From: Dehalococcoidia bacterium
Lineage (GTDB): Bacteria > Chloroflexota > Dehalococcoidia > UBA2979
Assembly: GCA_965262725.1 (NCBI GenBank)
Contig: OZ253555.1
Span: 1,477,256-1,541,255, forward strand
Length of the DNA: 64,000 nt
Direction of reading: 5' to 3'
The notes under the pieces: model-generated
Told to the model about the DNA's origin: nothing
Databases searched by the model: none
What the model saw: only the letters and a program-made list of their open reading frames with translations
Program-made: the position numbers and the translations under genes
Shown: one piece after another, positions 10,544 through 40,361 of the stretch
Layout: the number at the start of each line of letters is the position of its first letter
Numbering within the stretch: the first letter of the stretch is position 1

Positions 10544-10627
10544 GTTTGCGCCGCCTCTGGTCCGATCCGCCTCGACCGCCATTCTAGGACCCGGAGCGCG
10601 GGGCGGTGATGACGCGGCCCCTCCGTA

Positions 10628-12225
<1,598 letters not shown>

Positions 12226-12229
<4 letters not shown>

Positions 12230-17138: not shown

Positions 17139-19670
17139 CTACGCCTCCTCGAGGTCCTCGGTGAGGGCGGACGCGAGCTGCTCGCCCCCGGACTGGGAGC
17201 GGACCCCGTCGACGAGATCGAGGTCGCCGAGGCGCCGGATCGCCCGCACGAGCGGGGCGACTCGCTTGCCCGTGGGGGAGGAGAAGAGGCGCTCGATGAT
17301 CTCCTTTCCGTCACGCGAGGGCCTCCCGGAGGCACCCAGCACGGCCCGCTCCCTGGGCGTGGACCACCTCAGGACCTCGTAGAGCCAGTCCCCGAGGGCC
17401 GCGTCGTCGCCCGCTGCACCGGCGAGACCGACGTACTCGAGCGCCGGCCCCTCACGGGCCAGAGCCGCTCGCTCCGCGGTCGAGCCACCCTCCGCTGCGC
17501 GCAAGATTCCCAGCAGGCTCCGCGACTCCTCGGCGCTCGTCTGCAGTGCCCTCCCCCGCGACGGCGCGTACTCGGTCAGCCGCCCCGCGGCGGCCGCCGC
17601 AAGCGGCTCCCATGTGATATCCGGGTCCGCGCGTGAGAGCACCTCGAGCGCGCGCAGGGTCTCCCCCGGCTCCTCCGCCACGCGCTTCGCGAGCGCCTCC
17701 TCGAACGTCGGCCGGTCCGCCGGCTCGACCGAGAGCCTCGCAGCGCAGTCCTCCCAGCCCGGCAGCGCGGCGTAGGCTGCGAGGGCGTCGCAAACTCGCT
17801 CCGCGTCGCCGGACGCCCGCACCGTCAGCCACTCGAACCGGCGCAGGAGCGCGTGCGCTCCCTCGGCCCAGCCCGCACCGCCGCCTGCGTCGATAGCGAC
17901 GGCCGTCGCCCTCGCCGCGATCGCCTCCGCGTCGGCCCGGCCGACGAGCGAGAACAGATCCGCGAGGCGCGCGGCCACCGAGGGAGTCAGCGGCGGCCAC
18001 ACCTCGGCCTCGCGCCCGCCCCGGGCGAGCAGCTCGGTGACGTCTCGCCATTCGTCGTCGGGGCGGAGCTCCTCCGGGATCTCCGCAAGGCGGCTCGCGG
18101 CGAGCAGAAGGGTGGGCGGCGACGACGAGGGCACCCGCATGAACCCGGACCCGGCGAGCGCTTCCCAGAACCCCGTCCGGCCGGCGAGCTCCACGAGCCC
18201 GTCCGCCTCCTCCCGCATCAGGGAATTGTCGATGAGGGGTCCGTAGAGCAGCTGCAGCGCGCGCTCCGGAGGAGCACCGAATGCGATGGCCGCGAGATGC
18301 GCCTCGACGCGCGCATCGAGGAGAGGAGCGACGCCGGGCAGAATCGGATCCTCCCGGCGCAGGTCGGCGGCCACCTCGGGGCCCTGCTTCCGCTGGCTCG
18401 CGTAGTACGCGAGGCTCGCGATCGGGAGGTCGTGCTGCCAGCGCCGGTGCAGCGCGCCGATGCCGTTGACGTAGAGCTTCAGCTCTCGGGGACTCGGCGC
18501 CCGATCGCCTCCCGCAAGCTGGTGCTGGTAGAGGCGGTAGAGAGCGTAGTGGTCGGTGTCGTGCTCCGGGAGTGCGCGGCGCAGCAGCGAGGCGAGGTAC
18601 TCGCGCCAGTCGCTGAGCAGCAGCAGCGGCACCTCGAAGTGCACCTGGATGCTCTTGTCGAGGAAGGACTCCGCCAGCGTGCGCGGCGGTGATCCTCCCA
18701 CCTCGGGGCGGGCGACCAGGCCGTCCCACAGGCGGTCGATAGCGCCCTTGTCGTACGGCAGCAGCACCCAGAGCGAGTCGAGCCAGGGCGGGCGCGGATC
18801 GCTAGTGTGGTGCAGGAACGTCTGTAGCGTCGCCCACACCGCGCGTGCGTCCTCGGGAGCCACGCGGTCGAGGTTGTCGACGACGAGGACGAGACGTCTC
18901 GTGGGATGACCATCGAGCGCGGCGCACATGAGGTCGCCGAACTCGCGCTCGAACTCGACGGATGTCGGGTCCGGCGTCTCGACCGTCTCGCGGTCGGACT
19001 GCGTGACCGACTGCACCGAGAACAGCTCGAGCCACCGGGCGGCGGAGTCGTCCCGCCGGAGGCAGTGGGCAAGCCCCGCTACGGCGAGCGCGAAGACCGC
19101 CAGCCCGCCGAGGATCCCGGCACCCGAGCGCCAGGTGGCGGGATCGCCCGAAGAGAGCCCCGCGTTCAGCAGCGCGACGCCCGACGGCACCAGGACAGCG
19201 AAGAGGACGCCTGCCACGATGCCCGCCGGCGTGATCCTGGGCCGCGTGTGCTCGACGCGGTCCCTCCTGGAGAGGCTCTCACGCCGTTCGCGCCACTTCT
19301 TGCCGTCGACCCACTCCTTCTCACCGAGCAGGATGTCGATGAGCGTCTCGAGAAAGGAGCGGCGCAGGGGATCGCCCTCGTGCGCCCAGGCGTCGAAGAC
19401 CGCGACGCGCTCGTCCTGGCCGCTCATGCGCTCGGCGAGGAGCCGGACGACCGTGGACTTCCCGGAACCCCAGCGGCCCTCGAGCCCGATCGTGCGCCCG
19501 CCGTCCTCACGGGTGATCAGCTCATGGATGGCGGCGGCGATCGGCTCGTGCGATCCGAACTGGTCCTCGTCGACCGGCGCATCGTCGAGCGTCCACGTGG
19601 GGCACGACGCACCCGGACGCGCATCGTCAGCGATGGCGGGGCTCCTGTCGGGCGGGGAGAGGCCGGCCAT
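17139..19670 (-). CDS. KAP-family P-loop NTPase (843 aa from the ATG at 19670) with two transmembrane helices inserted in the NTPase domain.
   Basis: Walker A GLEGRWGSGKST. Hydrophobic inserts ITPAGIVAGVLFAVLVPSGVALL and ILGGLAVFALAVAGLAHCL. Walker B LVLVVDNLDR. The track ORF extends to 19982 through a (GT)n-encoding hexanucleotide repeat; that Arg/Gly/Pro-rich extension is unlikely to be coding. Confidence 0.85.
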   Translation of the reverse strand: MAGLSPPDRSPAIADDARPGASCPTWTLDDAPVDEDQFGSHEPIAAAIHELITREDGGRTIGLEGRWGSGKSTVVRLLAERMSGQDERVAVFDAWAHEGDPLRRSFLETLIDILLGEKEWVDGKKWRERRESLSRRDRVEHTRPRITPAGIVAGVLFAVLVPSGVALLNAGLSSGDPATWRSGAGILGGLAVFALAVAGLAHCLRRDDSAARWLELFSVQSVTQSDRETVETPDPTSVEFEREFGDLMCAALDGHPTRRLVLVVDNLDRVAPEDARAVWATLQTFLHHTSDPRPPWLDSLWVLLPYDKGAIDRLWDGLVARPEVGGSPPRTLAESFLDKSIQVHFEVPLLLLSDWREYLASLLRRALPEHDTDHYALYRLYQHQLAGGDRAPSPRELKLYVNGIGALHRRWQHDLPIASLAYYASQRKQGPEVAADLRREDPILPGVAPLLDARVEAHLAAIAFGAPPERALQLLYGPLIDNSLMREEADGLVELAGRTGFWEALAGSGFMRVPSSSPPTLLLAASRLAEIPEELRPDDEWRDVTELLARGGREAEVWPPLTPSVAARLADLFSLVGRADAEAIAARATAVAIDAGGGAGWAEGAHALLRRFEWLTVRASGDAERVCDALAAYAALPGWEDCAARLSVEPADRPTFEEALAKRVAEEPGETLRALEVLSRADPDITWEPLAAAAAGRLTEYAPSRGRALQTSAEESRSLLGILRAAEGGSTAERAALAREGPALEYVGLAGAAGDDAALGDWLYEVLRWSTPRERAVLGASGRPSRDGKEIIERLFSSPTGKRVAPLVRAIRRLGDLDLVDGVRSQSGGEQLASALTEDLEEA

Positions 19671-19920
19671 CGGCGTGAGAGCGAGATCATACGCCCGGCC
19701 GCGCGGGCGGCACACCAAGGGGAGGGCTCCTCCGCGCCTCCCTCGCCGGTGCGCGTGCGGCAGGGGTGAGCAGCCGGCGCTGCGCCCGGGCGAGCGAGAG
19801 GAGGCGGGCGGCCGCGGTCGCCCGCCCGCCGTACACGCCCCGGCGAGGCGCCGGCTGAGCCGCCCGCTCCGCGGGCCGGGCACCGCGCGTCGGCTGCCCC
19901 GCTCACGTCCCGATCCCCCG

Positions 19921-19968
19921 CCCGTGCCGGTGCCCGTGCCGGTGCCCGTGCCCGTGCCCGTGCCCGTG
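19921..19968. repeat. Tandem hexanucleotide repeat (CCSGTG) x8, immediately 5' of / overlapping the extended KAP NTPase reading frame.
   Basis: cccgtg ccggtg cccgtg ccggtg cccgtg cccgtg cccgtg cccgtg, read directly. On the minus strand it is in-frame and encodes (GT)8. Confidence 0.9.
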
Positions 19969-20119
19969 CCGCGAAGCCTCAACGGCGCCGGAGGACGTGG
20001 CGACCCCGTCCGTCTCAGGGCGTGCGAGGGGAGGGGACGTCACAACCGACCGCGCAGCCGGCGCGTCGGCCGGCTAGACCCAAGCCGGCTGCCGGTCCAG
20101 GGACGAGCGGCGAACTGCC

Positions 20120-20942: not shown

Positions 20943-22523
20943 ATGGCCTACCGGGAGGTACACGGGGTGGAGATCCAGGAGATCATTCGACGCTGGCAGG
21001 CGGGGCTCAGCCAGCGCCGCATCGCCAGCGGGATGGGGTTGTCGCGTCAGACGGTCCGCCGCTACATCGACGCGGCCGAAGCGGCCGGCCTCACACCTGA
21101 CGGTCCCGAGCCGAGTGAGGAGCAGCTCGCCGCGCTGGCGACGCTGAGCCTCTCCGGCCCGCGGCAGGTCGAGGCGCCGAGCGAAGAGCTGCTCTCGCCC
21201 TGGGCGGAGCAGATCGAGCGCTGGCTTGAGACCGACCGCCTGCAACTGACGCGCATCCAGGAGCTCCTCGCCGGACGAGGCTGCGAGGTCTCCTACACCA
21301 CGCTGCGGCGTTTCATCCGGCGCCGCGGCTGGCGCCACCGGCTGCCGTCGACCGTGCGCATGGACGACGGGCCGCCGGGCGAGGTGGCGGAGATGGACTT
21401 CGGCCGCCTCGGCTTCATCCGGGACCCCGAGAGCGGCCGCCGGCGCGCGGTGTGGGCGCTGGTCGTCGTCTGGCGCTACTCACGCCACTGCTTTGTGTGG
21501 CCCACCACCAGCCAGACGCTGGACGCTGTGATCGAGGGCCTGGAGGAGGCCTGGGCCTTCTTCGGGGGCGTGCCGCGCTACCTCGTCATCGATAACTTCC
21601 CGGCCGCCGTCGCCGGGGCCGACGCGCTGCACCCGCGCTTCACGCGGGGCTTCCTCGAGTACGCCCGCCACAGAGGCTTCATCACCGACCCCGCGCGCGT
21701 GCGTCATCCCCGCGACAAGCCGCGCGTCGAGCGCAGCATCCCCTACGTGCGCGAGCGCCTCTTCAAGGGCGGCGACTTCCGGGACGTCGTCGACCTGCGC
21801 TCCGCCGCCCGCAGCTGGTGCCTGGAGGTGGCGGGACAGCGCATCCACGGCACGACCCGCCGCCGGCCGCTCGAGGTCTTCCGGGAGGAGGAGCTCCCTC
21901 TCCTCGCTCCCTGGGACGGCGAGCCCTACGAGGTCCCCGACTGGCGGACCGCCACGGTCCATCCCGACCACCACATCGCCTGCCAGTACGCGCTGTACTC
22001 GGTGCCGTCCACGGCCTGCCCGCCCCGCCAGAAGGTCGAGGTGCAGCTCGGCTCGAAGCTGGTGCGCATCTACCACCGCGGTCAGCTCATCAAGGTCCAC
22101 CCGCGCCAGCGCCGGGGCGGCCGCGCCACCGACCCGAACGACTACCCGGCCGAGCTCACCCCCTACACCAGGCGGGCGCCCGACTGGATACAGCGCCGCG
22201 CCGCCGAGCTGGGGGAGGCCGTGGGCGCCTACGCCGAGCGTCTCTTCGAGGGCTCCCTGCCCTGGGCGAAGCTCCGGCAGGGCCACAAGCTGCTGCGCCT
22301 CGCCGAGCGCTACTCCCCGGACCGCCTCGACGCCGCCTGCCGCCGCGCGCTCGAGGTCGACCTCATCGACGTGCGCCGCCTCGAGCGCATCCTCGTCCGC
22401 GCCCTCGACCAGGAGAGCACCCCAGACCAGCCCGAGCTGCCGCCTCCTCCGGGGCGCTTCGCCCGCTCGGGCTCCGTCTTCGCCCAGTCCCGCACGCAGA
22501 CCCCGACAGGAGCACCACGATGA
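20943..22523 (+). CDS. istA: IS21-family transposase IstA (HTH plus DDE integrase core), 526 aa.
   Basis: N-terminal HTH (LSQRRIASGMGLSRQTVRRYI). rve-type catalytic region. IstA-typical length and IstA-IstB ATGA overlap. Confidence 0.9.
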   Translation: MAYREVHGVEIQEIIRRWQAGLSQRRIASGMGLSRQTVRRYIDAAEAAGLTPDGPEPSEEQLAALATLSLSGPRQVEAPSEELLSPWAEQIERWLETDRLQLTRIQELLAGRGCEVSYTTLRRFIRRRGWRHRLPSTVRMDDGPPGEVAEMDFGRLGFIRDPESGRRRAVWALVVVWRYSRHCFVWPTTSQTLDAVIEGLEEAWAFFGGVPRYLVIDNFPAAVAGADALHPRFTRGFLEYARHRGFITDPARVRHPRDKPRVERSIPYVRERLFKGGDFRDVVDLRSAARSWCLEVAGQRIHGTTRRRPLEVFREEELPLLAPWDGEPYEVPDWRTATVHPDHHIACQYALYSVPSTACPPRQKVEVQLGSKLVRIYHRGQLIKVHPRQRRGGRATDPNDYPAELTPYTRRAPDWIQRRAAELGEAVGAYAERLFEGSLPWAKLRQGHKLLRLAERYSPDRLDAACRRALEVDLIDVRRLERILVRALDQESTPDQPELPPPPGRFARSGSVFAQSRTQTPTGAPR

Positions 22524-23293
22524 CCGCCACCACCTCAGACCTCCGCCCGCTGCTCAAGCGCCTCAAGCTCGGCCGTATGCTCGACACCCTGCCCGAGCGC
22601 ATCGCCCTCGCGCGGCGCGACCACCTCGACTACGCGGACTTCCTGCAGATCCTGCTCGTCGACGAGGTGAGCCGCCGCGACCACGGGCGGTTGGAGCTGC
22701 GCCTGCGCCAGGCCGGCTTCGAGCAGCTCTGCCGCCTCGAGGACTTCGACTGGGCGGCCGCCATCCGGCTCGACCGCCGCCTGCTCGACGCCGCCTTCTC
22801 GCTGCACTTCCTCGATCGCCGCGAGCACGTCCTGCTCGTCGGCCCCGTCGGCGTCGGCAAGAGCTTCTTAGCCCAGGCGCTCGGCTACTCAGCCGTCCGC
22901 TCCGGACGCAGCGTCCGCTTCGCCCCGGCCGACCACTACTTCCGCGAGATGGCGCAGGCCCGCGTCGACCACTCGGCCGAGAAGGTCTTCCGAAGCTTCC
23001 TCGCGCCCGACCTGCTCATCCTCGACGACCTCGGGCTCCATCGCCTCAGCGCGCAGCAGTCCATCGACCTCTACGAGCTGGTCATCGGGCGCCACCGCAG
23101 CTCCAGCTTCGTCATCACCTCGAACCGCGCCGTGGAGGAATGGCTGGGTCTCTTCGACGACCCGATCCTCGGCAACAGCGCCCTCGACCGCCTCGCCAAC
23201 GCCAGCTACCAGATCGTGATCGAGGGCGATAGCTACCGCCAGCGGCTCTCGCCGCACCGCGCCCTGCTCGAGGCGCAGACGGGAGGTGATTGA
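22520..23293 (+). CDS. istB: IS21-family ATP-binding helper IstB (DnaC-like AAA+), 257 aa.
   Basis: Walker A LVGPVGVGKSFLA. Walker B LLILDDLG. The start ATG overlaps the istA stop (ATGA at 22520-22523). Confidence 0.9.
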   Translation: MTATTSDLRPLLKRLKLGRMLDTLPERIALARRDHLDYADFLQILLVDEVSRRDHGRLELRLRQAGFEQLCRLEDFDWAAAIRLDRRLLDAAFSLHFLDRREHVLLVGPVGVGKSFLAQALGYSAVRSGRSVRFAPADHYFREMAQARVDHSAEKVFRSFLAPDLLILDDLGLHRLSAQQSIDLYELVIGRHRSSSFVITSNRAVEEWLGLFDDPILGNSALDRLANASYQIVIEGDSYRQRLSPHRALLEAQTGGD

Positions 23294-23485
23294 CGCGCTA
23301 GACGCTCACTGATATCAAGCCGCCTACCGGCGTCCCGGGTGGTCTAATGACCGTGGCGACGCGTGGCTCAATGACCCTGGCGATCGACACGGCACTATGT
23401 TGGCACGTATAAATTCACATAGATTCACGTCTAATTCACTGACAGTAGGCCGACAACCGGTCAGAATCCCATCTCGTTACGGGCA

Positions 23486-23800
23486 GTGCGCTTGCACGGG
23501 GTGCTCGCCGGGTTTGCCCAGGGCGCTAGCTACGACGTGCAGGTACGCGCAGTCGCGGACGTCGAGGGAGCCTGGTCCGGGAGCCGGACGGGAACGCCCG
23601 CCGAGCCCGGCGGCTCGACCGCGACGGCGGCGACCCTGGCGCTCGACGCCCCGCTGGGGGGCATGATCGAGCCGGGAACGGACACCGACTACTTCAAGCT
23701 CGTGTTGAGCAGTGCGGCCACGATTCTGATCTGGACGTCAGGAGACCTCGATACGGTGGGGGTATTGCTGGACAGCGGCGGCGCGGAGCTGGAGTCATGA
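23486..23800 (+). pseudogene. 5'-truncated remnant of a secreted protein: C-terminal bacterial pre-peptidase (PPC)-like domain.
   Basis: ...ASYDVQVRAV then GSTATAATLALDAPLGGMIEPGTDTDYFKLVLSSAATILIWTSGDLDTVGVLLDSGG. There is no signal peptide or N-terminal domain. The frame opens only 50 nt downstream of the IS21 right end. Confidence 0.4.
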
Positions 23801-23852
23801 CTAGCGCATCCCTATCTCACGAAGTCCATCGCAGTGCGAGCGGATTGCCCAA

Positions 23853-26558
23853 GTGACGAGTCTGCTGCGGCTTCTCGATCCGAACGAGCCTGACTCGGCG
23901 GCGCGAGCTGCCGGGGCTGTCGCCGCCCTGCTCGACCGCCTGCCGTCACCACGCTCAATCGCCGAACTTCGTCTCGGGCCGGAGGACGTTGAGTGGCTGC
24001 GAGTGTGGGCGGGCGGGATGTCCGCTGCAGCGGCGAGGTGGAGCGGCGACCGGCGGCTCCTGGGCGACCTGGGGGCCGCGCGCCAGCAGGCGTTCGGGCT
24101 GGTCTTCCTCGCACTCGCGGCTGAGACGGCGCGGCGGGATGCGGCCGAGGGGCACGTGTGGGGCCCCGTCCGGCGCCGCGTATCCAGCGCGGCCGCCTCG
24201 ATGCTCTTCAGTCAGGGGCAACCGAAGCAAGCGCTCAAGGACGCGCTGGAGTCCGCGTGCAGGCGCTGGCAGTTGCGGCATGTCTTTGGAGAGGAAGGCC
24301 TGCAAGCCTGGTACGCCTCGGTCTACCTTCAGTTCGGGTTCACGGAACGGACCATCGAGTCGCGACTGCCGGCGCGGCTTGCGAATGCCGAAGCGCTGCC
24401 CATAGCGGTTCACCACCTGCTCCACGACCGGAGACTGAAGTCCGACTCGTTCGCGTCCCTCTGGAACACCCTTATCGGTGTGCGCCGTCGCAACGTATCG
24501 GACTTGAGAGCCCGCCAAGTGCTTGCGGGGAGCCCGTGGATTCTGCCGGAGTGGACTGACGCGCTCCTCGAGGCTGCCGTGGCGCGCATGGAGTTGACGC
24601 CGTCGGGCCTGTCCGATGAAGAGGTTGCGCCCTCGCTCTTCACCGTTCCGCGTCTGGAGTGGGTCGGTCAGCAACCGCGCTTCATCGCCGAACTGGTCAA
24701 CCTTGCCGACGTCGCCGGCGAGTTGGAGCCGGGTGCCTACCGATTGCGGGCCGGCACGGTCAGCGTGGAGTTCACGATCGACGACCTCGGCACCCCTCAC
24801 GGCCTGCGCCCGGTGGGACTTCCACTGTGGCCAGCCCGGCTCACCGCCACAGTTGAGCAGCACCACGGTGAGGACTCATGGGATCCCGTCGCTGGCGAAG
24901 AGATGGTCCTGTGGGAACCCTCCGACGAAGTCGCCGCCTTCCGCGACGACGGGTTCCCGCTGGACGCCTGGAGCACCGCGCTGCACCCAAATCAGCCCTA
25001 CACACTCGTGCTTGCACCGGGACTCGACGTCAAGCCCGTCCAAGACCGTTGGGCGCATGCGGATGGATGCCTCGCGGTCCAGTTGCCGGCTGGCTGGGCG
25101 GAGGATACGGGCGTGTACCTCGATGGCGAGAGAATCTGGGATCCGCTCGTCACCGCCGATGGCCAGAAGACGCTTGCTGGGCTGTCTATGCCTCCCGCTG
25201 GCACGAGGCTGGGTGAAGCACCGAGGATTCAGTTGTTCGGCCTGTCGGAGCGGGTCACTGAAGTAAAGGCCGATCGGCGTGCAGTGGCCTTCGAGCAGCA
25301 CGGGGGGAGCATCGAAGCGTTCCTTTCCCCCGGCGAGCACGCCGCCCGCCCCTCCGTGCTCGTCCGCACCAAAGACGCAAGCGGAGAGGTTAGGGCGGGG
25401 CGGATTCAGCTCACCTGGTTCGGGGCCCAGCACCTTCGCCCGTACGGCTGGGCGCCGTTCCCGGTCGGTGTGATCGATGAGCGCGATCTCGGTCAGCGCA
25501 TCCGCGCGTTCGCGCCGGAGTGGCGTGAGCCGACATTGCTGGTTGGCAACCGTCCGATCGGGCGGATCGGCAGCCGCGGTCGAGCACGGGGCTCGGTGGG
25601 AGCGTGGGGCGCGCCGCTTCTCATCGCCGATGGGCAGTTCAATCGCGAGCCCGACCGCCAACTGCTGCTGGCCGATGCCATCACGTCTCGCGGCGTCATC
25701 CTGGACATGAACGATGACGACTTCGGAGGCGCGGCCCTGGTCACCCTCCGGCAGCCCGTCAACCTCGGCGAGGTCAGAGTCTTCGGCATCGATCGCGGCG
25801 GCGCTGTCGACGACATCCGGCCCACCCCAACGGGTGAGCGGTCGTGGGTGATCGAGGTGCCTCCAGAGAACGCCCTGGCGATCGTCTACGGGGAGGAATG
25901 GATTGGGGGGTGGTGGTGGCGGCCCCCCGTACCGCCCCAGTCGGCCGAAGGTGCCGTTCACCTGATAAGGCTGCTGCGCGACGCGCGGGCTCCGCTGCTC
26001 TCGCGTGACTATGGCGGTTGGGCGCGGGGAGCGCTGCGCGCGCACCCCGCCAGCGCGCTCGTCTGGCTCTTCAACCTCAGCGAAGCTGGAACGCTCTCCG
26101 CCGCGCCGCCGGAATCAGACGACTTCGCTCCAGTGGTTCGCGACCTGCTCGACGGATGGGAGCCGGACCACATATGCGTCGCTCACCTTGCCCGAACTCT
26201 GCGTGACTCAAGCGAGGAGTTCATCGAAGGGCTCGCCGACACTGCTCTGCGAGCGCCGGGCCCGACCGCACGCCTGCTCAGTTCAGTCTTCGAGGACTCG
26301 GGGCTCCGGCGGCGTGTCCGCGGAGCCCTCCTTGAGGCGCTTGGTTGGGGAGACGCATCGAGCGCCGGCGTGCTCAATGAGATCGGATGGCAGTTCGATG
26401 TGGACAGCGGGTTCCTTGAACGTCTCGGGCGGTTAGCGAACGATGGGTTGCGCGGGCAACCGATTCCCCGCGTGCAGCGGCAGAATCTGCTCGTGGCGAT
26501 GAACCTGAGCGGCGACTTTCGGCGGTGGCTCGCCGGACGCCTGATCTCGGAGGACTGA
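23853..26558 (+). CDS. druH: Large (901 aa) protein with no recognisable domain: a DruH-like partner of the downstream DUF1998 helicase (Druantia type III-like architecture).
   Basis: GTG start at 23853, stop at 26558. Composition is non-repetitive and Trp-rich. No known motifs were recognised. The stop lies 4 nt before the SD/GTG of the next gene. Confidence 0.8.
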   Translation: MTSLLRLLDPNEPDSAARAAGAVAALLDRLPSPRSIAELRLGPEDVEWLRVWAGGMSAAAARWSGDRRLLGDLGAARQQAFGLVFLALAAETARRDAAEGHVWGPVRRRVSSAAASMLFSQGQPKQALKDALESACRRWQLRHVFGEEGLQAWYASVYLQFGFTERTIESRLPARLANAEALPIAVHHLLHDRRLKSDSFASLWNTLIGVRRRNVSDLRARQVLAGSPWILPEWTDALLEAAVARMELTPSGLSDEEVAPSLFTVPRLEWVGQQPRFIAELVNLADVAGELEPGAYRLRAGTVSVEFTIDDLGTPHGLRPVGLPLWPARLTATVEQHHGEDSWDPVAGEEMVLWEPSDEVAAFRDDGFPLDAWSTALHPNQPYTLVLAPGLDVKPVQDRWAHADGCLAVQLPAGWAEDTGVYLDGERIWDPLVTADGQKTLAGLSMPPAGTRLGEAPRIQLFGLSERVTEVKADRRAVAFEQHGGSIEAFLSPGEHAARPSVLVRTKDASGEVRAGRIQLTWFGAQHLRPYGWAPFPVGVIDERDLGQRIRAFAPEWREPTLLVGNRPIGRIGSRGRARGSVGAWGAPLLIADGQFNREPDRQLLLADAITSRGVILDMNDDDFGGAALVTLRQPVNLGEVRVFGIDRGGAVDDIRPTPTGERSWVIEVPPENALAIVYGEEWIGGWWWRPPVPPQSAEGAVHLIRLLRDARAPLLSRDYGGWARGALRAHPASALVWLFNLSEAGTLSAAPPESDDFAPVVRDLLDGWEPDHICVAHLARTLRDSSEEFIEGLADTALRAPGPTARLLSSVFEDSGLRRRVRGALLEALGWGDASSAGVLNEIGWQFDVDSGFLERLGRLANDGLRGQPIPRVQRQNLLVAMNLSGDFRRWLAGRLISED

Positions 26559-26562
26559 CGTA

Positions 26563-29500
26563 GTGCCGGGGAAGCTGGACTCACTCGGGCTCGCGGAGTC
26601 GCTGCGGCGACGAATGGCCGACTTCGCGTCGGCGGACCTGTACGTGACGGACCCCGAGATTCAGCGCGCCGCCGGGGCCGTATGGGAGGACGAGGAGTCG
26701 GGGCTGGTTGGCGAACTGTGGGTCGAGGGGATCATGCCGCCAATGCCCGGTCAGCGCCTACAGAAGATCGCGGAAGCGGGCGGGTTCGACCAAGACTTGC
26801 TCGGGCGCCTGACGGAGTCTGGCGCTTGGGGCGACTGGCGGCTTCACGAGCACCAGGAGCGCGCCATTCGCGCTGCCTCGAGCGATCTAGGCGGCGCCGT
26901 CATGGTTTCTGCGGGCACTGGCGCTGGGAAGACGGAGAGCTTCCTGTTGCCGCTCGTCGACCGGCTGTGGAGCGCGCCTCGCCGCGGTTCCGGCATGCGC
27001 GCGCTCATCCTCTACCCCATGAACGCTCTCGTCCGTGACCAGATGGATCGCCTTGATGCGTGGCTTGGCGGTCAGTCCCGGCTCACCTATTTCCACTTCA
27101 CGAGCGAGACACCCGAGACTGAGTCCGAGGCGGACCGGCGTGGGATAGCGAAGCAGTTCGCGAGCCGCGTTCGATCGCGGGACGAAGCGCGGCGCGCTCC
27201 TCCCGACATCTGCGTGACGAACTACTCGATGCTCGAGTACATGCTCGCTAGGCCGCAGGACGCACCATTCTTCGGCGAGGGGCTCGAGGTCGTCGTCCTC
27301 GATGAGGCGCACCTCTACACGGGGACGCTCGCGAGCGAGATCATGTTCCTGCTGCGCCGGGTGCTGCTCCGCTGCGGACTGACCGCGACGGACATCCTGC
27401 ACCTCGCAACGTCGGCGACGCTCGGCGGCGACGACGACGAACTGCGGGCGTTCCTCTCCCAGCTCACGGCCACGCCGCCCGGGCGCGCCTGCGTCATCCG
27501 GGGGCGACCTCAGCCGTCCGCGCCGCTGCCTGCGTCAGGCAGCGACCAACGTGCCGGAGCACTCGTGCAGCTCGATGGTAGGCTCCCTTCCAACGCTGGT
27601 GGGACCGATGTGTTGTCAATACTGGGGGCGGAGACTGACGACGACTCCGACGCGCCGATCGTGCTTGGTCGGCGGTTGGCGGACTGGCCCGCCACGGAGC
27701 GCCTGCGGTCCGCCCTGCACGCCGAGCCTGGAGTGCCACACCTTCTAGTCGAACTCGCCGAGAAGGTGTGGCCTCACGGCGGCAAATCGAATGTCGCTGC
27801 CACCGCCGCTCTGCTGCGCTGGACGTCAATAGCTCAATCGGGGCCGGACGCTCCGCTGCTCGCGCATCGGCTGCATCTGCCGCTGCGCGGCCCTGGCGGG
27901 TTGGGCCTCTGCCTCAACGGCGACTGCTCAGGCCCCGAGGAACGGCAGAAGACCGGATGCGGCGCTGTCCAGGATGCCCGTGGCGACCGATGCCGCTGGT
28001 GTTCCTCTGTCGTCCTGCCGATCGCGCGCTGCGAGGGCTGCGGGCTCGTGGTGCTCACCGCGCGGCAGCAACACGCGAGATTCGTGCCGGAACCCGTTCC
28101 TGGTCGCGGTACGAGGCGAACCGCGATGGAAGTGCGCGGCTTACTGCTCGGGTTCGCCGACCCTGCACCGGGGGCGGTGGAAGTGCTCCCGGACGGTTCG
28201 GTGGGAGGCGGAGGCGTGCGCCTGCGCCCCCTGCCGCCGCTCGATGCTGACACGCCGTACGAGACGGGCTGCGCACACGAATTATTCGAGCCGCTCGCGC
28301 GCGGCGCCGGGTTGCTGCTGAGCGTGATCGCCGAGACATCTCTCGCCGCTATGCCGCCGGACAGCGACCCCGATCGCGCCCGCACGCGGCCCGCCGGGGG
28401 CAGGCGGCTGCTGGTGTTCAGTGACAGCCGCCGGGAGGCTGCCCGGCTCGGGCCGGCGCTCACCTGGGGCCATGAGGTGCAGCTAGTTCGGGCGGAGATC
28501 CTGCGGCTGATGGACGCTGCATCCCCGGACGATGTGTCTGCAACCCGCGAGTACCTCAAGTCTGACATTGCTCGCCTGCAGAATCTGCTGGAGCGGGATC
28601 CCCCATCATCGACGCGCCAACTCATCGAGCGGGACTTGGCTGACCGGGTGACGGACCTACGGGCGCACATCCTGGGCGGGCCCATGCACGACTGGGAGCG
28701 CGCCTTGGCCCGTTCGGACAAGCTCGCTGAGATCCTGTCGTTTGACGGGGCGAGCATCCACCGGCGGGCCGAGTGGAGTGACGAGTCGTGGAGCGAGAAT
28801 CACCGGGCGAACGGCAGGCGCGCCCGCGCGTTGCTGGCGCGTGAGTTCGTCGCCCCACCCGGTCGGAGCGCCGGCGCGTCGCTCGAGGCGCTGGGGCTGG
28901 CGCTCGTGGACTATCCGGAGCTGCGTGAACTGCCGCCGCCAACGCTCGGCCAGTTGCCGAGTACGATCCGCGAGCGTGCGGTCGAACAGTGGCCCCAGTT
29001 CGTCGCAGCCCTGCTCGACTCGCTTCGCGTTGACGGCGGGATTACAACGGGCGAACAGGAACTCGACGACTACTACTCCGAGGACCATGCGCCGATCGGA
29101 AAGTGGATCAGCTTCGAAGGCCCGGACCGGCGCGACCGCGCCCGGTTCCGCGGCGCCACCTCGCGGCACAGGCGGAATGCCTTCCTCATCCGATTGCTGC
29201 TCGACTTCGGCGCGACGGGCGAGCAGCTGGATGAGTTCGAGCCGTTGCTGGCGCGCGCCGCCTTCGACTGGTTGCGAACCGCGGAGCCACGCCCCGAGTG
29301 GCTGGAGCGCCACCAGACCGAGCCCTGGTTCCGCGTGCGGTTCCCCGATCTCGCGCTGCGCAGGCCGGACGAGGTCTGGCTGGACGAGAGCCGCCTCATC
29401 GTCGGGTTCGTAGTGAATGGCCGCCATCCGCGGGGAACCGGCCGCTTCGTGCAGCGGAGGCAATCCGAGCTTGACGCCGATCCCCGCTTCCAGCGCCTGC

Positions 29501-31686
29501 GGTCGGAGCTCCGTGAGGAACCGTCGCTCCGTGTCGGCCTGTGGGCGGAGGAGCACTCCGCGCAGCTTTCGCCGGAAGAAGCGCGGCGTATTCAGGATCT
29601 CTTCGAGAGCGGGGTCCGCAACGTGCTGAGCTCGAGCACGACGATGGAGCTGGGTGTCGACATCGGCGGCCTGAGCGGCGTCCTCATGACCAACACGCCG
29701 CCCAGCCGCGCCCGCTACCTACAGCGAGCCGGGCGCGCGGGACGGCGCGGCGAGGGAGCCTCGGTCACCCTGCTGTTCGCCCGCAACCAACCGTTCGACC
29801 AAGAAGTCTTCCGGAACTTCGCGCAGTATCTCAGTGCCCCGATGCGGCCCCCGTCGGTACTGCTCGAACGGGACCGTCTGTCGCTGCGGCACGCCTACTC
29901 GCACGTTCTCGGCAGCTTCTTCCGCGCGCTGTGGGAGCCGGGCCAGAGTACGAGCACCATGGGAGCGTTCCGTCAGATGGGGGACTTCACAGGCAGCCCG
30001 TCGACCGTGCGGTGGCGATCCGGCCCCAAACCCGGGATCAGCGATCAGCCGCACCCGCCCGATCCCGCCTCGCCACCTGCCTGGTGGACCGCCGATGGCG
30101 GCCCACTCGAGGCACAGTTTCGGCGGTACATCGAGCACCTGGCCGGCCACCCGGGCGGGATCGCCGCCGACCTTCGGACCATCTTGTCCAACGCGAGAGC
30201 CGAGGAGCAGCTCGACGACTGGCCAAGATTCTGCGAGGAACTCCTCGACCGCTTCGACGAGTCGACCGCCGCATGGCGCGGCGAGTTCGACGAGTTCCTC
30301 GCCGCATGGGACCTGGCTGGGACAAGGCCGCTTGCTAACTTTCTCCACTTCCAGCTCGCCGAGCTGCGCGGGCGACCGGTGATCGCGCATCTCGCCGAGC
30401 ACCAGTTCCTGCCTCGCTTCGGTTTCCCACTGGGAGTCCTGCAGCTTCGCATCGACACCGACCGGGCCAATGGTGATTCCTGGGCGCTCGATCGGTCCGG
30501 GGCGTTGGCGCTGCGGGAGTACGCGCCGGGTGCGAAGGTGCTGGCGGGTGGACGGCAGATCACCTCTCGCGGGCTCGTCAAGCACTGGGTCGGGGAAGAC
30601 GAACAAGCGCTCGGTGCCCAGCGCCGCCTCCTGACGTGCTCCGAAGAACACTCGTATCTCTCAACCGGCGTCGCGCTGCACGATGAGTGCCCGTACTGCG
30701 GGGCAGCGCCGTCGGGGTCGGGAAACCAGGTCATCAGGGTCGCGCGCGGCTTCAAGACCGCGGCGTGGGATCCTCCGCGGCGCGCACGAGGAACGGAGCT
30801 CGTTGGCATGATCGAGGTCGTGCCGCCCGCCATCGGTCACGCGATGTCCGGCGAGCACACGGATGTCGAGATCGAGTCCGTGCCCGGCCTCCGCGCGGTC
30901 CACCTCGAGGGTGCGCAGCTGATCACCCTCAATGCCGGGGAGCACGGCTTCGGATTTCACATCTGCTATCGGTGCGGCTACGCGGGCTCCGAGCTTACGC
31001 GAGCGGCCACCGGGGCTCAGAACCTGCCGCCCGCGGCTCAGGATCACTCGCCCCTCTGGATGCGCCGCCGCCGCCGCGCTTGCTGGACCCAGGGCGCGCT
31101 GTCTTCGTTCGCTCGCAACCGTGTCCTGCTGCACGAGGAGACGACGGACGCGCTCGTGCTGGACTTCCGGGGCTGGAGTGTGGACCTGCGGGCAGAACGC
31201 GGTGCCCTGCTCGCCTGGGCTGCCGGATTGCCGCATGCGGTCGGGCAGACGCTCGACCTCGACGCCGGGGATGTCGCCGCCTCCCCGTACCCATTCAGCG
31301 ACGGCGTGGGCATCATCCTCCACGACACGGCTGCGGGCGGCGCCGGCCATGTCTCCGAACTGCTGCGAGGCTCCATGGCGCGCGATGTCCTCGAAGCCCT
31401 CCGCGTCCGCCTGTACGTCGACGAGGCGCACAACGCCCGATGCGTGCAGGGCTGCCTCTCGTGCGTGTTGAGCTACGAGGCGCAGCACTTGGTCGAAGTC
31501 GGCCTCGATCGCCCGCGTGGGCTCGCGCTCCTCGACGCGCTCCTCTCGGGCGGCGCAGGCACCATGCCGGAGCCCAGCCCCGCGCCGGCCGATGGGACAC
31601 CGATGCTGCAGCACGATGCGGAGGAACGGATAGCTCACGCTGCGGCGCGCAGACGCGGGCGATCCCGAAGGCGGACTTCAGGGTGA
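26563..31686 (+). CDS. druE: DruE-like SF2 helicase (1707 aa) with a C-terminal DUF1998 zinc-binding domain.
   Basis: Motif I VSAGTGAGKTESFLLP. Motif Ia LYPMNALVRDQ. TNYSMLEYML. Motif II VVLDEAHLYTG. Motif VI YLQRAGRAGRRGEG. C-terminal Cys clusters CPYCGAAPSG, FHICYRCGYAG and CVQGCLSCV match the DUF1998 4-Cys motif. GTG start with SD GGAGGA at 26549-26554. Confidence 0.9.
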   Translation: MPGKLDSLGLAESLRRRMADFASADLYVTDPEIQRAAGAVWEDEESGLVGELWVEGIMPPMPGQRLQKIAEAGGFDQDLLGRLTESGAWGDWRLHEHQERAIRAASSDLGGAVMVSAGTGAGKTESFLLPLVDRLWSAPRRGSGMRALILYPMNALVRDQMDRLDAWLGGQSRLTYFHFTSETPETESEADRRGIAKQFASRVRSRDEARRAPPDICVTNYSMLEYMLARPQDAPFFGEGLEVVVLDEAHLYTGTLASEIMFLLRRVLLRCGLTATDILHLATSATLGGDDDELRAFLSQLTATPPGRACVIRGRPQPSAPLPASGSDQRAGALVQLDGRLPSNAGGTDVLSILGAETDDDSDAPIVLGRRLADWPATERLRSALHAEPGVPHLLVELAEKVWPHGGKSNVAATAALLRWTSIAQSGPDAPLLAHRLHLPLRGPGGLGLCLNGDCSGPEERQKTGCGAVQDARGDRCRWCSSVVLPIARCEGCGLVVLTARQQHARFVPEPVPGRGTRRTAMEVRGLLLGFADPAPGAVEVLPDGSVGGGGVRLRPLPPLDADTPYETGCAHELFEPLARGAGLLLSVIAETSLAAMPPDSDPDRARTRPAGGRRLLVFSDSRREAARLGPALTWGHEVQLVRAEILRLMDAASPDDVSATREYLKSDIARLQNLLERDPPSSTRQLIERDLADRVTDLRAHILGGPMHDWERALARSDKLAEILSFDGASIHRRAEWSDESWSENHRANGRRARALLAREFVAPPGRSAGASLEALGLALVDYPELRELPPPTLGQLPSTIRERAVEQWPQFVAALLDSLRVDGGITTGEQELDDYYSEDHAPIGKWISFEGPDRRDRARFRGATSRHRRNAFLIRLLLDFGATGEQLDEFEPLLARAAFDWLRTAEPRPEWLERHQTEPWFRVRFPDLALRRPDEVWLDESRLIVGFVVNGRHPRGTGRFVQRRQSELDADPRFQRLRSELREEPSLRVGLWAEEHSAQLSPEEARRIQDLFESGVRNVLSSSTTMELGVDIGGLSGVLMTNTPPSRARYLQRAGRAGRRGEGASVTLLFARNQPFDQEVFRNFAQYLSAPMRPPSVLLERDRLSLRHAYSHVLGSFFRALWEPGQSTSTMGAFRQMGDFTGSPSTVRWRSGPKPGISDQPHPPDPASPPAWWTADGGPLEAQFRRYIEHLAGHPGGIAADLRTILSNARAEEQLDDWPRFCEELLDRFDESTAAWRGEFDEFLAAWDLAGTRPLANFLHFQLAELRGRPVIAHLAEHQFLPRFGFPLGVLQLRIDTDRANGDSWALDRSGALALREYAPGAKVLAGGRQITSRGLVKHWVGEDEQALGAQRRLLTCSEEHSYLSTGVALHDECPYCGAAPSGSGNQVIRVARGFKTAAWDPPRRARGTELVGMIEVVPPAIGHAMSGEHTDVEIESVPGLRAVHLEGAQLITLNAGEHGFGFHICYRCGYAGSELTRAATGAQNLPPAAQDHSPLWMRRRRRACWTQGALSSFARNRVLLHEETTDALVLDFRGWSVDLRAERGALLAWAAGLPHAVGQTLDLDAGDVAASPYPFSDGVGIILHDTAAGGAGHVSELLRGSMARDVLEALRVRLYVDEAHNARCVQGCLSCVLSYEAQHLVEVGLDRPRGLALLDALLSGGAGTMPEPSPAPADGTPMLQHDAEERIAHAAARRRGRSRRRTSG

Positions 31687-32208
31687 TCAACAGCCGTCGT
31701 GTAGTTGGCGGTATAGCCGTACCACCCTCCCAAAGCAGCGCTCAGAACGAGAGCGCCAGATACAACCTGGCACATCCCTTTTCCCTTTTCGCACGACCGC
31801 AGCTTCATACCGATGTTTGCCCGGTGGTGACACCAGACGGCAGCGGCAGAGCCAGTGCCAAGGGGCCTCGTCTCCGTAGGCATGCGTGGCGCAAGGGAGT
31901 GGTATGAGCCAGGACGGAACGTCATGTGAGTCCGTCATGTCAGGTTCAGAGAGGGCTCCAAGACGAGTTGGTGGCACAGGCTGGGACGGCTGGCGGCGAA
32001 CTCAAAACCCGTTGGGGCCTCGAATTGTCGGCGACGGCAAACTGGCAAGAACACAATTGCTAAGGAAGGCAGCAATTGGGGACCAGTTTGGGGATCAACA
32101 CGGGGGCACAGGACGGTACGACAGGGGACGCGGAGTGACGGCGACCGCTCGATTCACGATTGGAGCGGGACCAGATCGCACGTCCGGGGACCAATCAACA
32201 CCGATTCT

Positions 32209-32264
32209 GGGGGCTTCATAAGCCCTTGGTCGCAGGTTCGAATCCTGCCCCTGCTACCAACCTT
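32209..32264 (+). repeat. 3' half of tRNA-Met(CAT) (tRNA positions ~26-76, plus CCA and 5 downstream nt). An att-site-like partial copy of the tRNA gene found at 54441..54516.
   Basis: gggggcttcataagcccttggtcgcaggttcgaatcctgcccctgctaccaacctt matches the tRNA gene at 54441..54516 (opposite orientation) except for one base in the anticodon stem. There is no D-arm or 5' acceptor strand upstream. Confidence 0.8.
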
Positions 32265-36584: not shown

Positions 36585-37367
36585 TCAGGTCGTTGGGGCA
36601 CCTCCTCTCGGGGAGGTCGAGGCCCGGAGCCGGTAGGACTCGGTGCCGGTCTCGATGATATGGGCACGGTAGGTGAGGCGGTCAACGACGGCCGCGGCGA
36701 GACGAGGGTCGGTGAAGATGCGGCCCCACTCGGAGAACGGGGAGTTGGAGGCGACGGCGACCGATGCCCGTTCCTCGCGCTCGGTCAGGATCTGGAACAG
36801 CATTTCGGCACCGCGCGGGTCGAGGTGGACGTACCCGAACTCATCCAGGCAGAGCAGGTCGAGGCGGCCGTAGCGGGCGACGAGGCGTGAGAGCGCGCGA
36901 TCATCCGACGCTTCGGCCAGTTCATTCACCAGGGCGGCCGTGGTCATGTACCGCACGCGCAGCCCCAGGTGGCAGGCGGCCATGCCGAGGCCGATGAGCA
37001 GGTGTGACTTCCCGGTGCCGCTGTCACCGAGCAGGACGACGGGCTCGCCCCTTTCGACCCAGTCGCAGCGCTCCAGCGTGGCGAGCGCCGGCGCGTCGAC
37101 TGTCGGCGCCGCCTCGAGGTCGAAGTCGGCGAGGTACTTGAAACGCGGGAACCGCGCCTCGACGATACGGCGCTGACGGCGCCGCTCCTCACGGTCATCG
37201 CGTTCGGCTCCCAGCACTTCGGCGAGATAGCCCAGATGGGTGATCCGGTCTCGGACCGCGGCTTCGGCGAGCGGGAGCGCCTGCTTCCTGACGGTGGGGA
37301 GACGGAGCTCGCGGCAGATCGCCTCGATTGTCAGCTCCGCGGCCTGGTCGGTGAGGGGTGCTGTCAT
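36585..37367 (-). CDS. istB: IS21-family IstB helper ATPase, 260 aa.
   Basis: Walker A LLGDSGTGKSHLL. Walker B LLCLDEFG. ATG at 37367 follows RBS caggaggcac. The track ORF start at 37526 adds 53 improbable codons. Confidence 0.85.
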   Translation of the reverse strand: MTAPLTDQAAELTIEAICRELRLPTVRKQALPLAEAAVRDRITHLGYLAEVLGAERDDREERRRQRRIVEARFPRFKYLADFDLEAAPTVDAPALATLERCDWVERGEPVVLLGDSGTGKSHLLIGLGMAACHLGLRVRYMTTAALVNELAEASDDRALSRLVARYGRLDLLCLDEFGYVHLDPRGAEMLFQILTEREERASVAVASNSPFSEWGRIFTDPRLAAAVVDRLTYRAHIIETGTESYRLRASTSPRGGAPTT

Positions 37368-37383
37368 CGGGTGCCTCCTGTGG

Positions 37384-39144: not shown

Positions 39145-40361
39145 TCAGGCAGCCACCGACCCGTGACGAGGAGCCTCCTCGGCGCGGTACGGTTCGCGCG
39201 AGCGCAGCATGGCCAGGATGACGTCGCAGCGACGACGCGCGAGGCAGATGACGGCTGCGGTGTGTTTCTTTCCCTCGGCCCGCTTGCGGTCGTAGAACGC
39301 CCGCGAGACGGGGTCGCGCAGCGAGGCGAAGGCGGAGAGGTACATCGCGTTCTTGAGCCGGTGATTCCCGCGGCGGCTCCGCGTCTGCCCCCGGATGCTG
39401 CTGCCGGACTGGCGGGTGACCGGGGCAAGGCCGGCGTAGCTGGCCAGCCTCGATCCGTTCGCGAAGCGGGAGATGTCACCGATCTCGGCGAGCATCCGCG
39501 CTCCCGTCCTCGGCCCGATCCCCGGCAGGGAGCCGAGGATGGGGCCGAAAGGGTGGGCCTCGAAGAGCTCCCCGATCTCCGCGCCGAGCCGCTCCCGCCG
39601 CTGCTGCGTGCGATCCAGCTCGGTCGCGACCTCGGCGATCACCCGACCCATCGCGACCGAGCCGGGTACGACCACGGTCTGGGCGCCGAGGGCCCCGGTG
39701 ACGGCCTCGGTGAGCGTCTTCGCGAGGCGCGGCGAGCGCTTCCGGAGCGTCCGCGCGATGCGGCCGCGACCCGCCGTGGCCAGCGCCTGCGGTGTCGGGT
39801 AGCGGGCGAGCAGGTCCCGTGCCCCCGCATTGTGGAGCCTGGGGCCCAGTACGCGCTCCAGGGCCGGGGAGAGACCGGTGACGGCGTCGCGCAGCCGGTT
39901 CGTGAGCCGCGTGGCATCGGCGGCGAGGTCGGTGTCGTAGCCGTTGAGAACGCGCAGCTGCTCCAGGAGTTCGTCGTCGCCGGCGTCGAGCCAGTGCACC
40001 TGGTGGCGCCGGGTGCGGCCGGTGTCGGCCAGCACGAACGCATCGCGGCGGTCGGTCTTGGACTCACCCGGGTAGAGGTCGGCGGCACGGCGCATGACCA
40101 GCCCCGGCAGTATGCCACCGGCACGCCGCGGCGGGCGGCGACGGCGAGCACGAGCCGGGCCAGCGAGCCGGGCTGGTCGACGACCAGTGCCGGGGAGCCG
40201 AAGGACTCCGCGCGAGCGAGGAGCGCCTCGATGTCGGCCTCGTCGTTCGCGACGGCGACGGCGAACAGCGGCGCGCCTGCCGCGTCCAGCACATCGGCGA
40301 AGTGCTCTGTCTTGCCGATGTCGAGGCCGATCCACACGGTGGTTTCGTCGGGCGTACCCAC
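39145..40361 (-). pseudogene. IS110-family transposase, frameshifted (N-terminal DEDD domain in one frame, C-terminal domain in another).
   Basis: Frame A (40361..~40100): MGTPDETTVWIGLDIGKTEHFADVLDAAG...RRGVPVAY. Frame B (~40100..39145): LPGLVMRRAADLYPGESKTDRRDAFVLAD...ILGSLPGIGPRTGARMLAEIGDISRF. The two frames are joined by a -1/+1 shift near 40100. Confidence 0.8.

Follow-up and report, generated by a model that had tools for sequence, protein, structure and literature searches.

The 64,000-nucleotide stretch analysed here (the window) carries on its forward strand a pair of genes that we read, at a probability of roughly three in four, as an intact anti-phage module that is horizontally mobile and represents a compact, nuclease-less form of Druantia type III. 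The module is probably a Druantia III-like system of the 'III-B' sort. It consists of a gene for a 901-aa DruH-like protein (the partner, a member of what we call family X; positions 23853..26558), recognised from its ORF and translation, and of druE, recognised by its DruE3 match, whose product is a compact, 1707-aa YprA/MrfA-like SF2 helicase lacking a C-terminal nuclease (26563..31686). Both ORFs begin with GTG, and their coordinates, translations and 4-nt gap agree with the original prediction, which had taken them for a Druantia type III pair. A DruE helicase, a same-strand two-gene module and a defence island were all recovered, but the partner fails the DruH models and the helicase is devoid of the PLD region of type III-A.

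The partner gene ends with a TGA at 26556-26558, 4 nt before the druE start codon at 26563. A Shine-Dalgarno sequence of its own (GGAGGA) had been proposed for druE and was found at 26549..26554 on the forward strand, spaced 8 nt from the GTG. It lies within the 3' end of the partner gene, an arrangement suggestive of translational coupling. At the same partner/helicase junction in relatives, distances from -11 nt (overlap) to +17 nt (gap) were common. Both ORFs display the coding pattern of a high-GC genome, with GC1/2/3 values of 0.74/0.52/0.78 for the partner and 0.73/0.53/0.82 for druE. The GC3 of both lies below that of most adjacent genes.

Its sequence clearly marks the 1707-aa protein as a DruE-family YprA/MrfA-like SF2 helicase with intact ATPase and helicase motifs. 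The proposed check with PADLOC HMMs was positive, with DruE3 as the best models (E=5.9e-188 and 1.5e-145) and DruE1 at 1.5e-125, whereas DpdJ (3.3e-22) and DrmA (1.4e-11) matched far more weakly. Comparison with PDB sequences gave E=1.5e-78 for E. coli DruE (9tu7) versus E=7e-17 for YprA (6znp), and in BLASTP the helicase was collinear with E. coli DruE over its full length at 25% identity. Pfam placed RecA1 at aa 96-288 (DEAD, E=9.6e-19; 26848..27426, +), with the Walker A motif GTGAGKT (K123) and the DEAH box D247-E248-A249-H250. The RecA2 core followed at aa 992-1063 (Helicase_C, E=1.1e-10; 29536..29751, +), with motif VI, QRAGRAGRR, at 1054-1062. The catalytic residues, including Q1054, R1055, G1057 and R1058, are invariant across 19 relatives (alignment A2). 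The helicase motifs had been assigned to the N-terminal half of the protein; Walker A, DEAH and motif VI are present, but motif VI and RecA2 (aa ~990-1100) fall outside that half. The C-terminal DUF1998 domain was detected as expected, as a zinc-binding MZB domain at aa 1558-1635 (PF09369, 26.0 bits versus a cut-off of 24.2; 31234..31467, +), and its cysteines C1627, C1631 and C1634 are invariant in the same 19 relatives.

About 700 aa with CxxC clusters separate RecA1 from RecA2 (~990-1100). Three Cys pairs in this insertion (C450/C455, C477/C480 and C490/C493; 27910..28041, +) are invariant columns of alignment A2 and presumably form a zinc-binding module. For helicases of the ARMADA-Druantia lineage, Bell et al. 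(2025, PMC12458937) describe a CxxC beta-barrel module at this place. A large insertion between RecA1 and RecA2 with BrxA-like, CxxC beta-barrel and MarR-like modules is a synapomorphy of that lineage (Bell et al., PMC12458937).

As judged from its domain content, the helicase is a compact 'III-B-like' form without the PLD nuclease region. On the DruE3 profile, which has 2055 positions, its best-matching stretch stops at position 1677, and the chain ends 67 aa past the MZB alignment, as it does in most members of the clade. Since so short a tail (~70 aa) follows the MZB, the helicase is without the PLD domains of canonical type III-A. A search with Pfam revealed no PLD nuclease domain in the protein, and neither Pfam nor the tail length after the MZB gave any sign of a Vsr-type C-terminal domain. 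Some clade helicases bear extra C-terminal tails of ~150 aa, which had no Pfam match.

The partner had been described as an ORFan with no recognisable domain. The lack of a recognisable domain was borne out in Pfam, NCBIfam, PADLOC and PDB sequences, yet the partner is no ORFan: we found 22 close homologues, and the partner profile (alignment A1) matched 872 cluster representatives. Nor did it match a housekeeping family, an outcome that had been named as speaking against the original prediction. Members of family X are spread over Chloroflexota, Planctomycetota, Acidobacteriota, Verrucomicrobiota, Myxococcota, CPR and others, and in some, DNA-binding modules (RpoA-CTD or sigma region 4) are fused to the N-terminus. 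The family is encoded almost always directly upstream of the compact helicase clade. In an 80-locus genome scan, where the partner family cluster comprises 48 sequences, a member stood directly upstream of a same-clade compact helicase in 44 further loci, and the A1 profile also matched the upstream ORF in loci fetched before that scan. No third conserved gene accompanied the pair, none being common to more than 4 of 43 loci.

Models of DruH did not recognise the partner. The 13 PADLOC DruH3 HMMs and the NCBIfam model YjiT_fam (NF038336) gave no match even at E<=10; E. coli DruH, our positive control on the DruH/YjiT models, scored E=0 and 3e-294. Precomputed Pfam assignments placed PF27205 and PF27201, which nearly all DruH homologues carry, on none of the 22 partner homologues.

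Structure prediction, which had been proposed as a check on the 901-aa protein, gave a confident AF2 model (pLDDT 87.4, pTM 0.85) that shows the DruH plan. Helices were predicted at 14-243 and 698-900, with strands at 267-688 forming ~5 sandwiches; the corresponding segments of E. coli DruH, likewise modelled by AF2, are 9-247, 260-831 and 842-1118. We accordingly divide the partner into an N-terminal all-helical domain (aa 1-245; 23853..24587, +), a central array of ~5 Ig-like/beta-sandwich domains (aa 265-690; 24645..25922, +) and a C-terminal all-helical domain (aa 698-900; 25944..26552, +). On the basis of AF2 secondary structure and invariant columns, the N-terminal domain holds a candidate DNA-processing cleft; its invariant residues are E91, R94, R95, E99, G100, W103, K129, E133, R142, H143, Q160 and G162. 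The N-domains of the partner and of E. coli DruH have 14 helices each, with a disordered linker near residue 250, and the overall domain plan agrees with published cryo-EM descriptions of DruH. Fold searches with the partner matched Ig-like domains only, as reported for DruH. Foldseek against viral structures returned only Ig-rich tail/baseplate proteins at TM ~0.1; we rejected these matches as too unspecific to back the 'baseplate J-like' resemblance that has been reported for DruH.

Profile-profile alignment (hhalign) of the partner and E. coli DruH N-domains was weak without secondary structure, at 43% or 13% depending on the alignment used. With AF2-derived secondary structure it rose to 68-73%, versus less than 1% for all-helical controls. 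The aligned region remained constant (~30-110 versus 25-96) and contains a common AAExxRR..G..W motif. Over the full length without secondary structure the signal was weak (18%), and with a larger family X alignment the N-domain score fell rather than rose. Comparisons among the partner families X, actinobacterial Y and YjiT/Z were similarly weak (4-32%), and hhalign detected no similarity between the C-terminal domains of the partner and E. coli DruH, which stayed unaligned. According to published work, the evolution of DruH is much faster than that of DruE, so such fading of the sequence signal is expected. The name DruH for the 901-aa protein rests on where its gene lies, on the architecture predicted for it and on a weakly matching N-domain profile, and is backed by none of the DruH models.

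In blastn comparisons with related genomes, the sole common stretch was the gene pair itself, a mobile cassette at 23839..31822 (+) that does not include the native region upstream of the partner gene. A 95% identical copy (L088) covers only 23839-31822, and an 86% identical copy from a Dehalococcoidia MAG (L007) only 23842-31665; the flanks of both are unrelated to those in the window. Because homology to both of these genomes ends where the pair does, we conclude that the two genes move together as one cassette. In other genomes, copies with 86-95% nucleotide identity likewise encode full-length proteins. The island around the pair comprises HsdR, HsdM, a McrB-like AAA_5 protein, McrC and a KAP NTPase; the defence-island setting put forward earlier (Type I R-M, McrBC and KAP NTPase) was therefore found in the window. 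Several IS elements also reside in the island, and pseudogene fragments occur around the locus. A PADLOC 'DrmD' match at 36585-37526, considered as a DISARM or ARMADA component, turned out to be an IS21 IstB ATPase, and a suspected tmRNA after druE was only a sub-threshold tRNA-like remnant.

The cassette resembles the Druantia III-A systems of E. coli and P. aeruginosa (DruH-DruE; 9tu7, 9tud) in its two tightly coupled genes with the partner preceding the helicase. It shares with III-A DruE the layout of RecA1, long Cys-cluster insertion, RecA2 and OB-MZB at 25% identity, and with III-A DruH the succession of N-terminal helical domain, Ig-like array and C-terminal helical domain, as seen in AF2 models and cryo-EM descriptions. 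However, III-A DruE measures ~2100 aa with two C-terminal PLD domains, neither of which exists in the 1707-aa DruE of the window, and III-A DruH has 1119 aa and six Ig-like domains versus 901 aa and ~5 in the partner. Moreover, no sequence model assigns the partner to the YjiT family, and its C-terminal domain lacks detectable kinship to that of DruH. Bell et al. (2025, PMC12458937) define a III-B or 'type III-like' branch of the YprA tree, represented by GIH50614.1; this branch and the M. smegmatis system MSMEG_1253/1254 (PMC13316683) resemble the cassette in having a compact DruE with DEAD, Helicase_C and DUF1998 domains and no nuclease, next to one large upstream partner without annotated domain. 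M. smegmatis DruE has 1667 aa (Li & He 2026, PMC13316683). Actinobacterial loci (group Y) differ in their ~1100-aa partners, which the family X profile does not match, and their helicases are 25-31% identical to ours. In pairwise scores, our helicase clade is distinct from both E. coli III-A and the actinobacterial clade, with about the same distance to each.

This equidistance is one of several observations that would also suit another reading, namely that a DruE-like helicase acquired an independently recruited, analogous Ig-array protein and now forms a distinct subtype with an effector logic unlike that of type III. The complete lack of DruH model matches, the weakness of hhalign without secondary structure, the unrelated C-terminal domains, the presence of five instead of six Ig-like domains in a chain ~220 aa shorter, and the family-specific RpoA-CTD and sigma region 4 fusions point in the same direction. 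Yet gene position and tight coupling are those of type III, the three-part architecture is alike down to a linker at the matching place, and the N-domain alignment is reproducible, at 68-73% with secondary structure and with AAExxRR..G..W in common. Rapid DruH evolution also makes a weak sequence signal expected. We regard independent recruitment as unlikely.

It is far less probable that the cassette is an operon for a housekeeping DNA-repair helicase of the MrfA/YprA type, or a remnant that has decayed and lost its function. The helicase shares with MrfA/YprA (6znp) an SF2 core and MZB, and presumably 3'-5' translocation on ssDNA; however, MrfA (~750 aa) is less than half as large, has no counterpart of the ~700-aa insertion, and pairs with the MrfB exonuclease rather than with an Ig-array protein. 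DruE models fit far better than the distant YprA similarity (E=7e-17). IS elements and pseudogene fragments around the locus would be in keeping with decay, but both ORFs are intact, the 86-95% identical copies are full-length too, all catalytic motifs are conserved, and the cassette occurs in unrelated contexts. The least probable reading of all is that the helicase stems from another YprA-based system (ARMADA, DISARM, Dpd or TALON) and that the upstream gene is incidental. ARMADA type I and II combine a YprA-like helicase of the ARMADA-Druantia lineage with a BrxHII-like helicase and a PglX-like methyltransferase, and they inhabit the same phyla, type I helicases being common in Chloroflexota, Planctomycetota and Acidobacteriota. 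As PADLOC 2023 contains no ARMADA models, an ARMADA helicase would match the DruE HMMs as well. But no BrxHII-like or PglX-like gene lies in the window or in the family X loci, tblastn of E. coli ARMADA II proteins against the window found nothing, the Vsr domain is absent, and the similarity to E. coli ARMADA II YprA (214 bits) is below that to III-A DruE (287 bits). DISARM, in turn, encodes the DrmA helicase and the DUF1998 protein DrmB in separate genes together with the PLD nuclease DrmC, whereas the MZB is fused to the helicase here, DrmA reaches only 1e-11, and the nearby 'DrmD' match is the IstB ATPase mentioned above. Across 44 further loci, the upstream partner is the one gene that is conserved with the helicase. 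None of the outcomes that the original prediction had listed against itself came about: the DruE match is strong, the partner matched no housekeeping family, and the helicase is not a DISARM DrmA.

Druantia had been called mechanistically uncharacterised, a statement overtaken by several structural and biochemical studies of type III from 2025-2026. From this work on the E. coli, P. aeruginosa and M. smegmatis systems we derive how the type III-like module may operate. DruE, probably as a dimer, would load on single-stranded stretches in the intermediates that phage replication or recombination produces (3' tails, forks) and then unwind the duplex 3'-to-5' in an ATP-driven manner. The partner might bind or trim the ssDNA that this exposes, by means of the conserved cleft in its N-terminal helical domain, and its Ig-like array may sense infection. 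In PaDruH, the conserved cleft of the N-terminal helical domain is needed for defence; in EcDruH, an ssDNA/ATP pocket (Y670, N672, Y733, R1031, H1062, R1064, K1067) is flanked by Ig5 and the C-terminal domain. DruH biochemistry differs between laboratories, which describe an exonuclease, a dimer-dependent nickase or no nuclease. As the DruE of the window carries no nuclease itself, phage DNA would have to be destroyed or arrested by other means: by the partner, by host nucleases of the RecBCD type, or by blocked genome circularisation and replication, the last as reported for the nuclease-less mycobacterial system. In vivo protection against phage is documented for III-A systems and for the system of M. 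smegmatis only.

Druantia III is among the most common helicase-based defences, and structural work so far has dealt entirely with nuclease-bearing III-A of Enterobacteria and Pseudomonas. The cassette represents a large and phylogenetically broad branch with a nuclease-less DruE and a partner outside current DruH models. Since the partner escapes every one of these models, annotation rules that require a DruH match would not call a complete type III system here. We tentatively raise the possibility, somewhat doubtful at present, that the clade of compact DruE plus ~950-aa family X partner is a separate, so far unnamed Druantia subtype in which a non-YjiT partner is the only nuclease or sensor. 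If so, the helicase would be a pure motor exposing ssDNA, and the RpoA-CTD and sigma region 4 fusions would suggest that DNA or the transcription machinery is recognised. The family X profile (alignment A1, 872 clusters) could enter defence-annotation resources. The cassette also offers a natural test for two questions left by the 2026 papers: whether the system can do without PLD domains, and whether a DruH-like protein is the nuclease or only a sensor.

The two adjacent genes of the original prediction were borne out in coordinates, lengths, 4-nt spacing and ribosome-binding-site motif. The upstream gene (23853-26558, + strand, GTG start) encodes the 901-aa partner, and druE (26563-31686, + strand, GTG start) encodes the 1707-aa helicase. 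The partner's TGA stop codon (26556-26558, +) ends 4 nt ahead of the druE GTG, and GGAGGA was read in the sequence at 26549-26554 (+). In both ORFs, GC content by codon position followed the pattern of real genes in this genome of ~69% GC. GC3 was 0.78 for the partner and 0.82 for druE, versus 0.85-0.94 in most neighbours, which fits a foreign origin of the pair.

Judged from its sequence, the 1707-aa protein is a DruE. Two PADLOC DruE3 models matched it with E=5.9e-188 and 1.5e-145, ahead of DruE1, DruE2 and DruE4, while DrmA, DpdJ and Cas3 reached only 1e-11 to 1e-22. Among solved structures, E. coli DruE (2108 aa; 9tu7, E=1.5e-78) was closest. BLASTP against the E. coli DruE of locus L005, a Zorya II-Druantia III-ARMADA II island carried on a plasmid, gave 25% identity, collinear across ~1700 columns. 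Pfam placed DEAD at aa 96-288, Helicase_C at aa 992-1063 and MZB/DUF1998, over cut-off, at aa 1558-1635. Motif VI does not lie in the N-terminal half, where it had been placed: together with RecA2 it is at ~60% of the length, and ~700 aa are inserted between RecA1 and RecA2. Such an insertion has been described for the ARMADA-Druantia lineage (Bell et al. 2025, PMC12458937). Among 19 relatives, Walker A K123, the DEAH box (247-250), motif VI (1054-1062), the cysteine pairs 450/455, 477/480, 490/493 and 1468/1471, and likewise C1627, C1631 and C1634, were all invariant. Only 67 aa follow the MZB alignment, and the best stretch against the DruE3 model stops at position 1677 of 2055. The window's DruE is therefore without the two PLD domains to which the III-A DruE of E. 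coli and P. aeruginosa owes its helicase-nuclease character.

Other helicase systems were considered and judged unlikely. Against ARMADA, BrxHII-like and PglX-like genes were not found in the window, and the helicase has no Vsr domain; the protein scored 214 bits against E. coli ARMADA II YprA versus 287 against III-A DruE. DISARM is opposed by the fusion of MZB to the helicase and by the low DrmA scores, and a nearby PADLOC match to 'DrmD' was misleading, being IstB of an IS21 element. Protein size, the insertion, model scores and the behaviour of the cassette all speak against a repair-type MrfA.

The partner of this DruE is harder to place by sequence. It found no match in Pfam, NCBIfam, PDB sequences or PADLOC (the latter even at E<=10), while E. 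coli DruH as positive control gave E=0 (PADLOC DruH3) and 3e-294 (NCBIfam YjiT_fam). Precomputed annotations assign PF27205/PF27201 to DruH homologues and no family at all to the partner's homologues. The protein is nevertheless no orphan, as had been assumed. Its 22 close homologues share contigs with close homologues of the helicase across a 42-92% identity span, and a family profile retrieved 872 cluster representatives, typically of ~950 aa. In some members of the family (P0253, P0285, P0293, P0278 and P0224) the N-terminus is extended, by repeated RNA polymerase alpha-CTD/HhH modules in P0253 (E=7e-39), by a sigma-70 region 4 HTH in P0285 and P0293, or by a duplicate of the family's own N-domain in P0224. 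These extensions hint at DNA- or RNAP-directed recognition.

In position and architecture, the partner is DruH-like. The AF2 model of E. coli DruH comprises helices (9-247), a linker (249-256), strands (260-831) and helices (842-1118); the partner and E. coli DruH agree in the 14 helices of the N-domain and in the position of the linker. Profile-profile comparison without secondary structure was weak: the full-length proteins scored 18%, and the N-domain 43% or 13%, according to which alignment was used. The aligned stretch was constant across comparisons (partner ~30-110 versus DruH 25-96) and contains a common motif, which reads LALAAETARR..EG.VW in the partner and, in the consensus of the DruH family, LYAAEW.RRNH.GG.W.W. 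With AF2-derived secondary structure, the N-domain match rose to 68-73%, versus <1% for all-helical control pairs; the C-domains showed no similarity in the same comparison. Homology between the N-domains of the partner and DruH is thus probable, though short of proven.

A genome scan by DruE alignment yielded 80 loci, and the ORF immediately upstream of each helicase was extracted. Family X comprises 48 of these upstream proteins including the window's, and the partner profile matched every one (E from 1e-9 to 0). The helicases next to them measure 1700-1800 aa and are 33-86% identical to the window's DruE. Family Y, from 19 actinobacterial loci, has partners of ~1100 aa, which the family X profile did not match, and helicases of ~1550-1650 aa, presumably of the M. 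smegmatis type. All PADLOC DruH models missed these partners (L045-L079 group). E. coli DruH falls in neither family and stood alone in the grouping. By pairwise helicase scores, X, Y and III-A form three comparably distant lineages. In several family Y loci, GajB-, SNF2- or PglX-like (ARMADA-like) genes lie close by, an echo of the Druantia-ARMADA co-location in E. coli. Conservation does not extend to a third gene, any one neighbour of the pair being common to at most 4 of 43 loci. A ~560-aa gene is kept beside it in one sub-branch, mostly of Verrucomicrobiota MAGs (L051, 13694-15373; L053, 13662-15362; L057, 13474-15144; L009, 764-2059), which may represent a three-gene derivative. In L051 and L057 the helicase is lengthened at its C-terminus by ~125-150 aa, for which Pfam gave no match.

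A 95%-identical copy of the pair in L088 is homologous at the nucleotide level only over 23839-31822; for the 86% copy in L007, a Dehalococcoidia MAG, the homology spans only 23842-31665. The flanks differ between copies and are rich in mobile and defence genes (in L088 IS21, reverse transcriptases, HicA, a serine recombinase and PIN). Since homology is confined to the cassette, the pair moves as a unit. In the window, istA of an IS21 element (20943-22523) precedes it. A 104-aa ORF (23486-23800, +) with coding-like GC3 and no Pfam match separates the IS21 from the cassette without belonging to its conserved part; by eye it resembles the C-terminal piece of a larger protein. Downstream are a YgjP peptidase gene and, ~500 nt past the druE stop, a degenerate tRNA-Met-like sequence (32182-32256, +; Rfam tRNA 25.1 bits versus a gathering score of 29, no ARAGORN call), which may be what is left of a tRNA integration site; the window also has an intact tRNA-Met (54441-54515, -).

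The proposed defence island was confirmed by HsdR (4144-7281), HsdM (10628-12229), McrB-like (12917-14920), McrC (14745-15572) and KAP NTPase (17139-19982) genes. A DDE transposase (8546-9496, -) sits between hsdR and hsdM, and hsdS may be disrupted, as this interval retains only a 153-aa ORF (10121-10582). Two IS21 copies (istA/istB; 20943-23385 and 36585-39018, the latter -) and an IS110-family transposase (39145-40335, -) were located. Rfam identified group II intron RNA domains at 44696-44917 (+; RF02005, 170 bits) and 46943-47079 (+; RF02003, 103 bits); the ORFs beside them (45581-46645 and 47839-48699) are probably reverse transcriptases, and this region matches L088 stretches with RVT_1 genes at 73-83% nucleotide identity. 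At 590-1822 (+), an ArdC-N anti-restriction domain is fused to a zincin-like metallopeptidase. Such fusions are usual cargo of conjugative elements, which suggests that the entire region belongs, or once belonged, to an integrative element.

In published type III systems, DruE loads as a dimer on ssDNA, at 3' tails or forks, and its unwinding runs 3'-to-5'. Two groups report DNA degradation by the III-A PLD domain, and one that the PLDs are not needed. Readings of DruH differ: ssDNA binding that competes with ATP, a 3'-5' exonuclease in the N-domain cleft, or a dimer-dependent nuclease and sensor. Lacking a nuclease, the M. smegmatis system (MSMEG_1253/1254; Li & He 2026, PMC13316683) stops phage DNA circularisation and replication and requires DruH-DruE contact. 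By analogy, the cassette would divide its labour in the same way, and the nuclease step would come from the partner's conserved N-domain or from host enzymes.

This kind of system is already known, and its compact form has been named 'III-B'. Judged by sequence, the partner family of clade X, the compact helicases paired with family X, is covered by none of the current DruH models. The helicases of the clade form a lineage distinct from both characterised ones.
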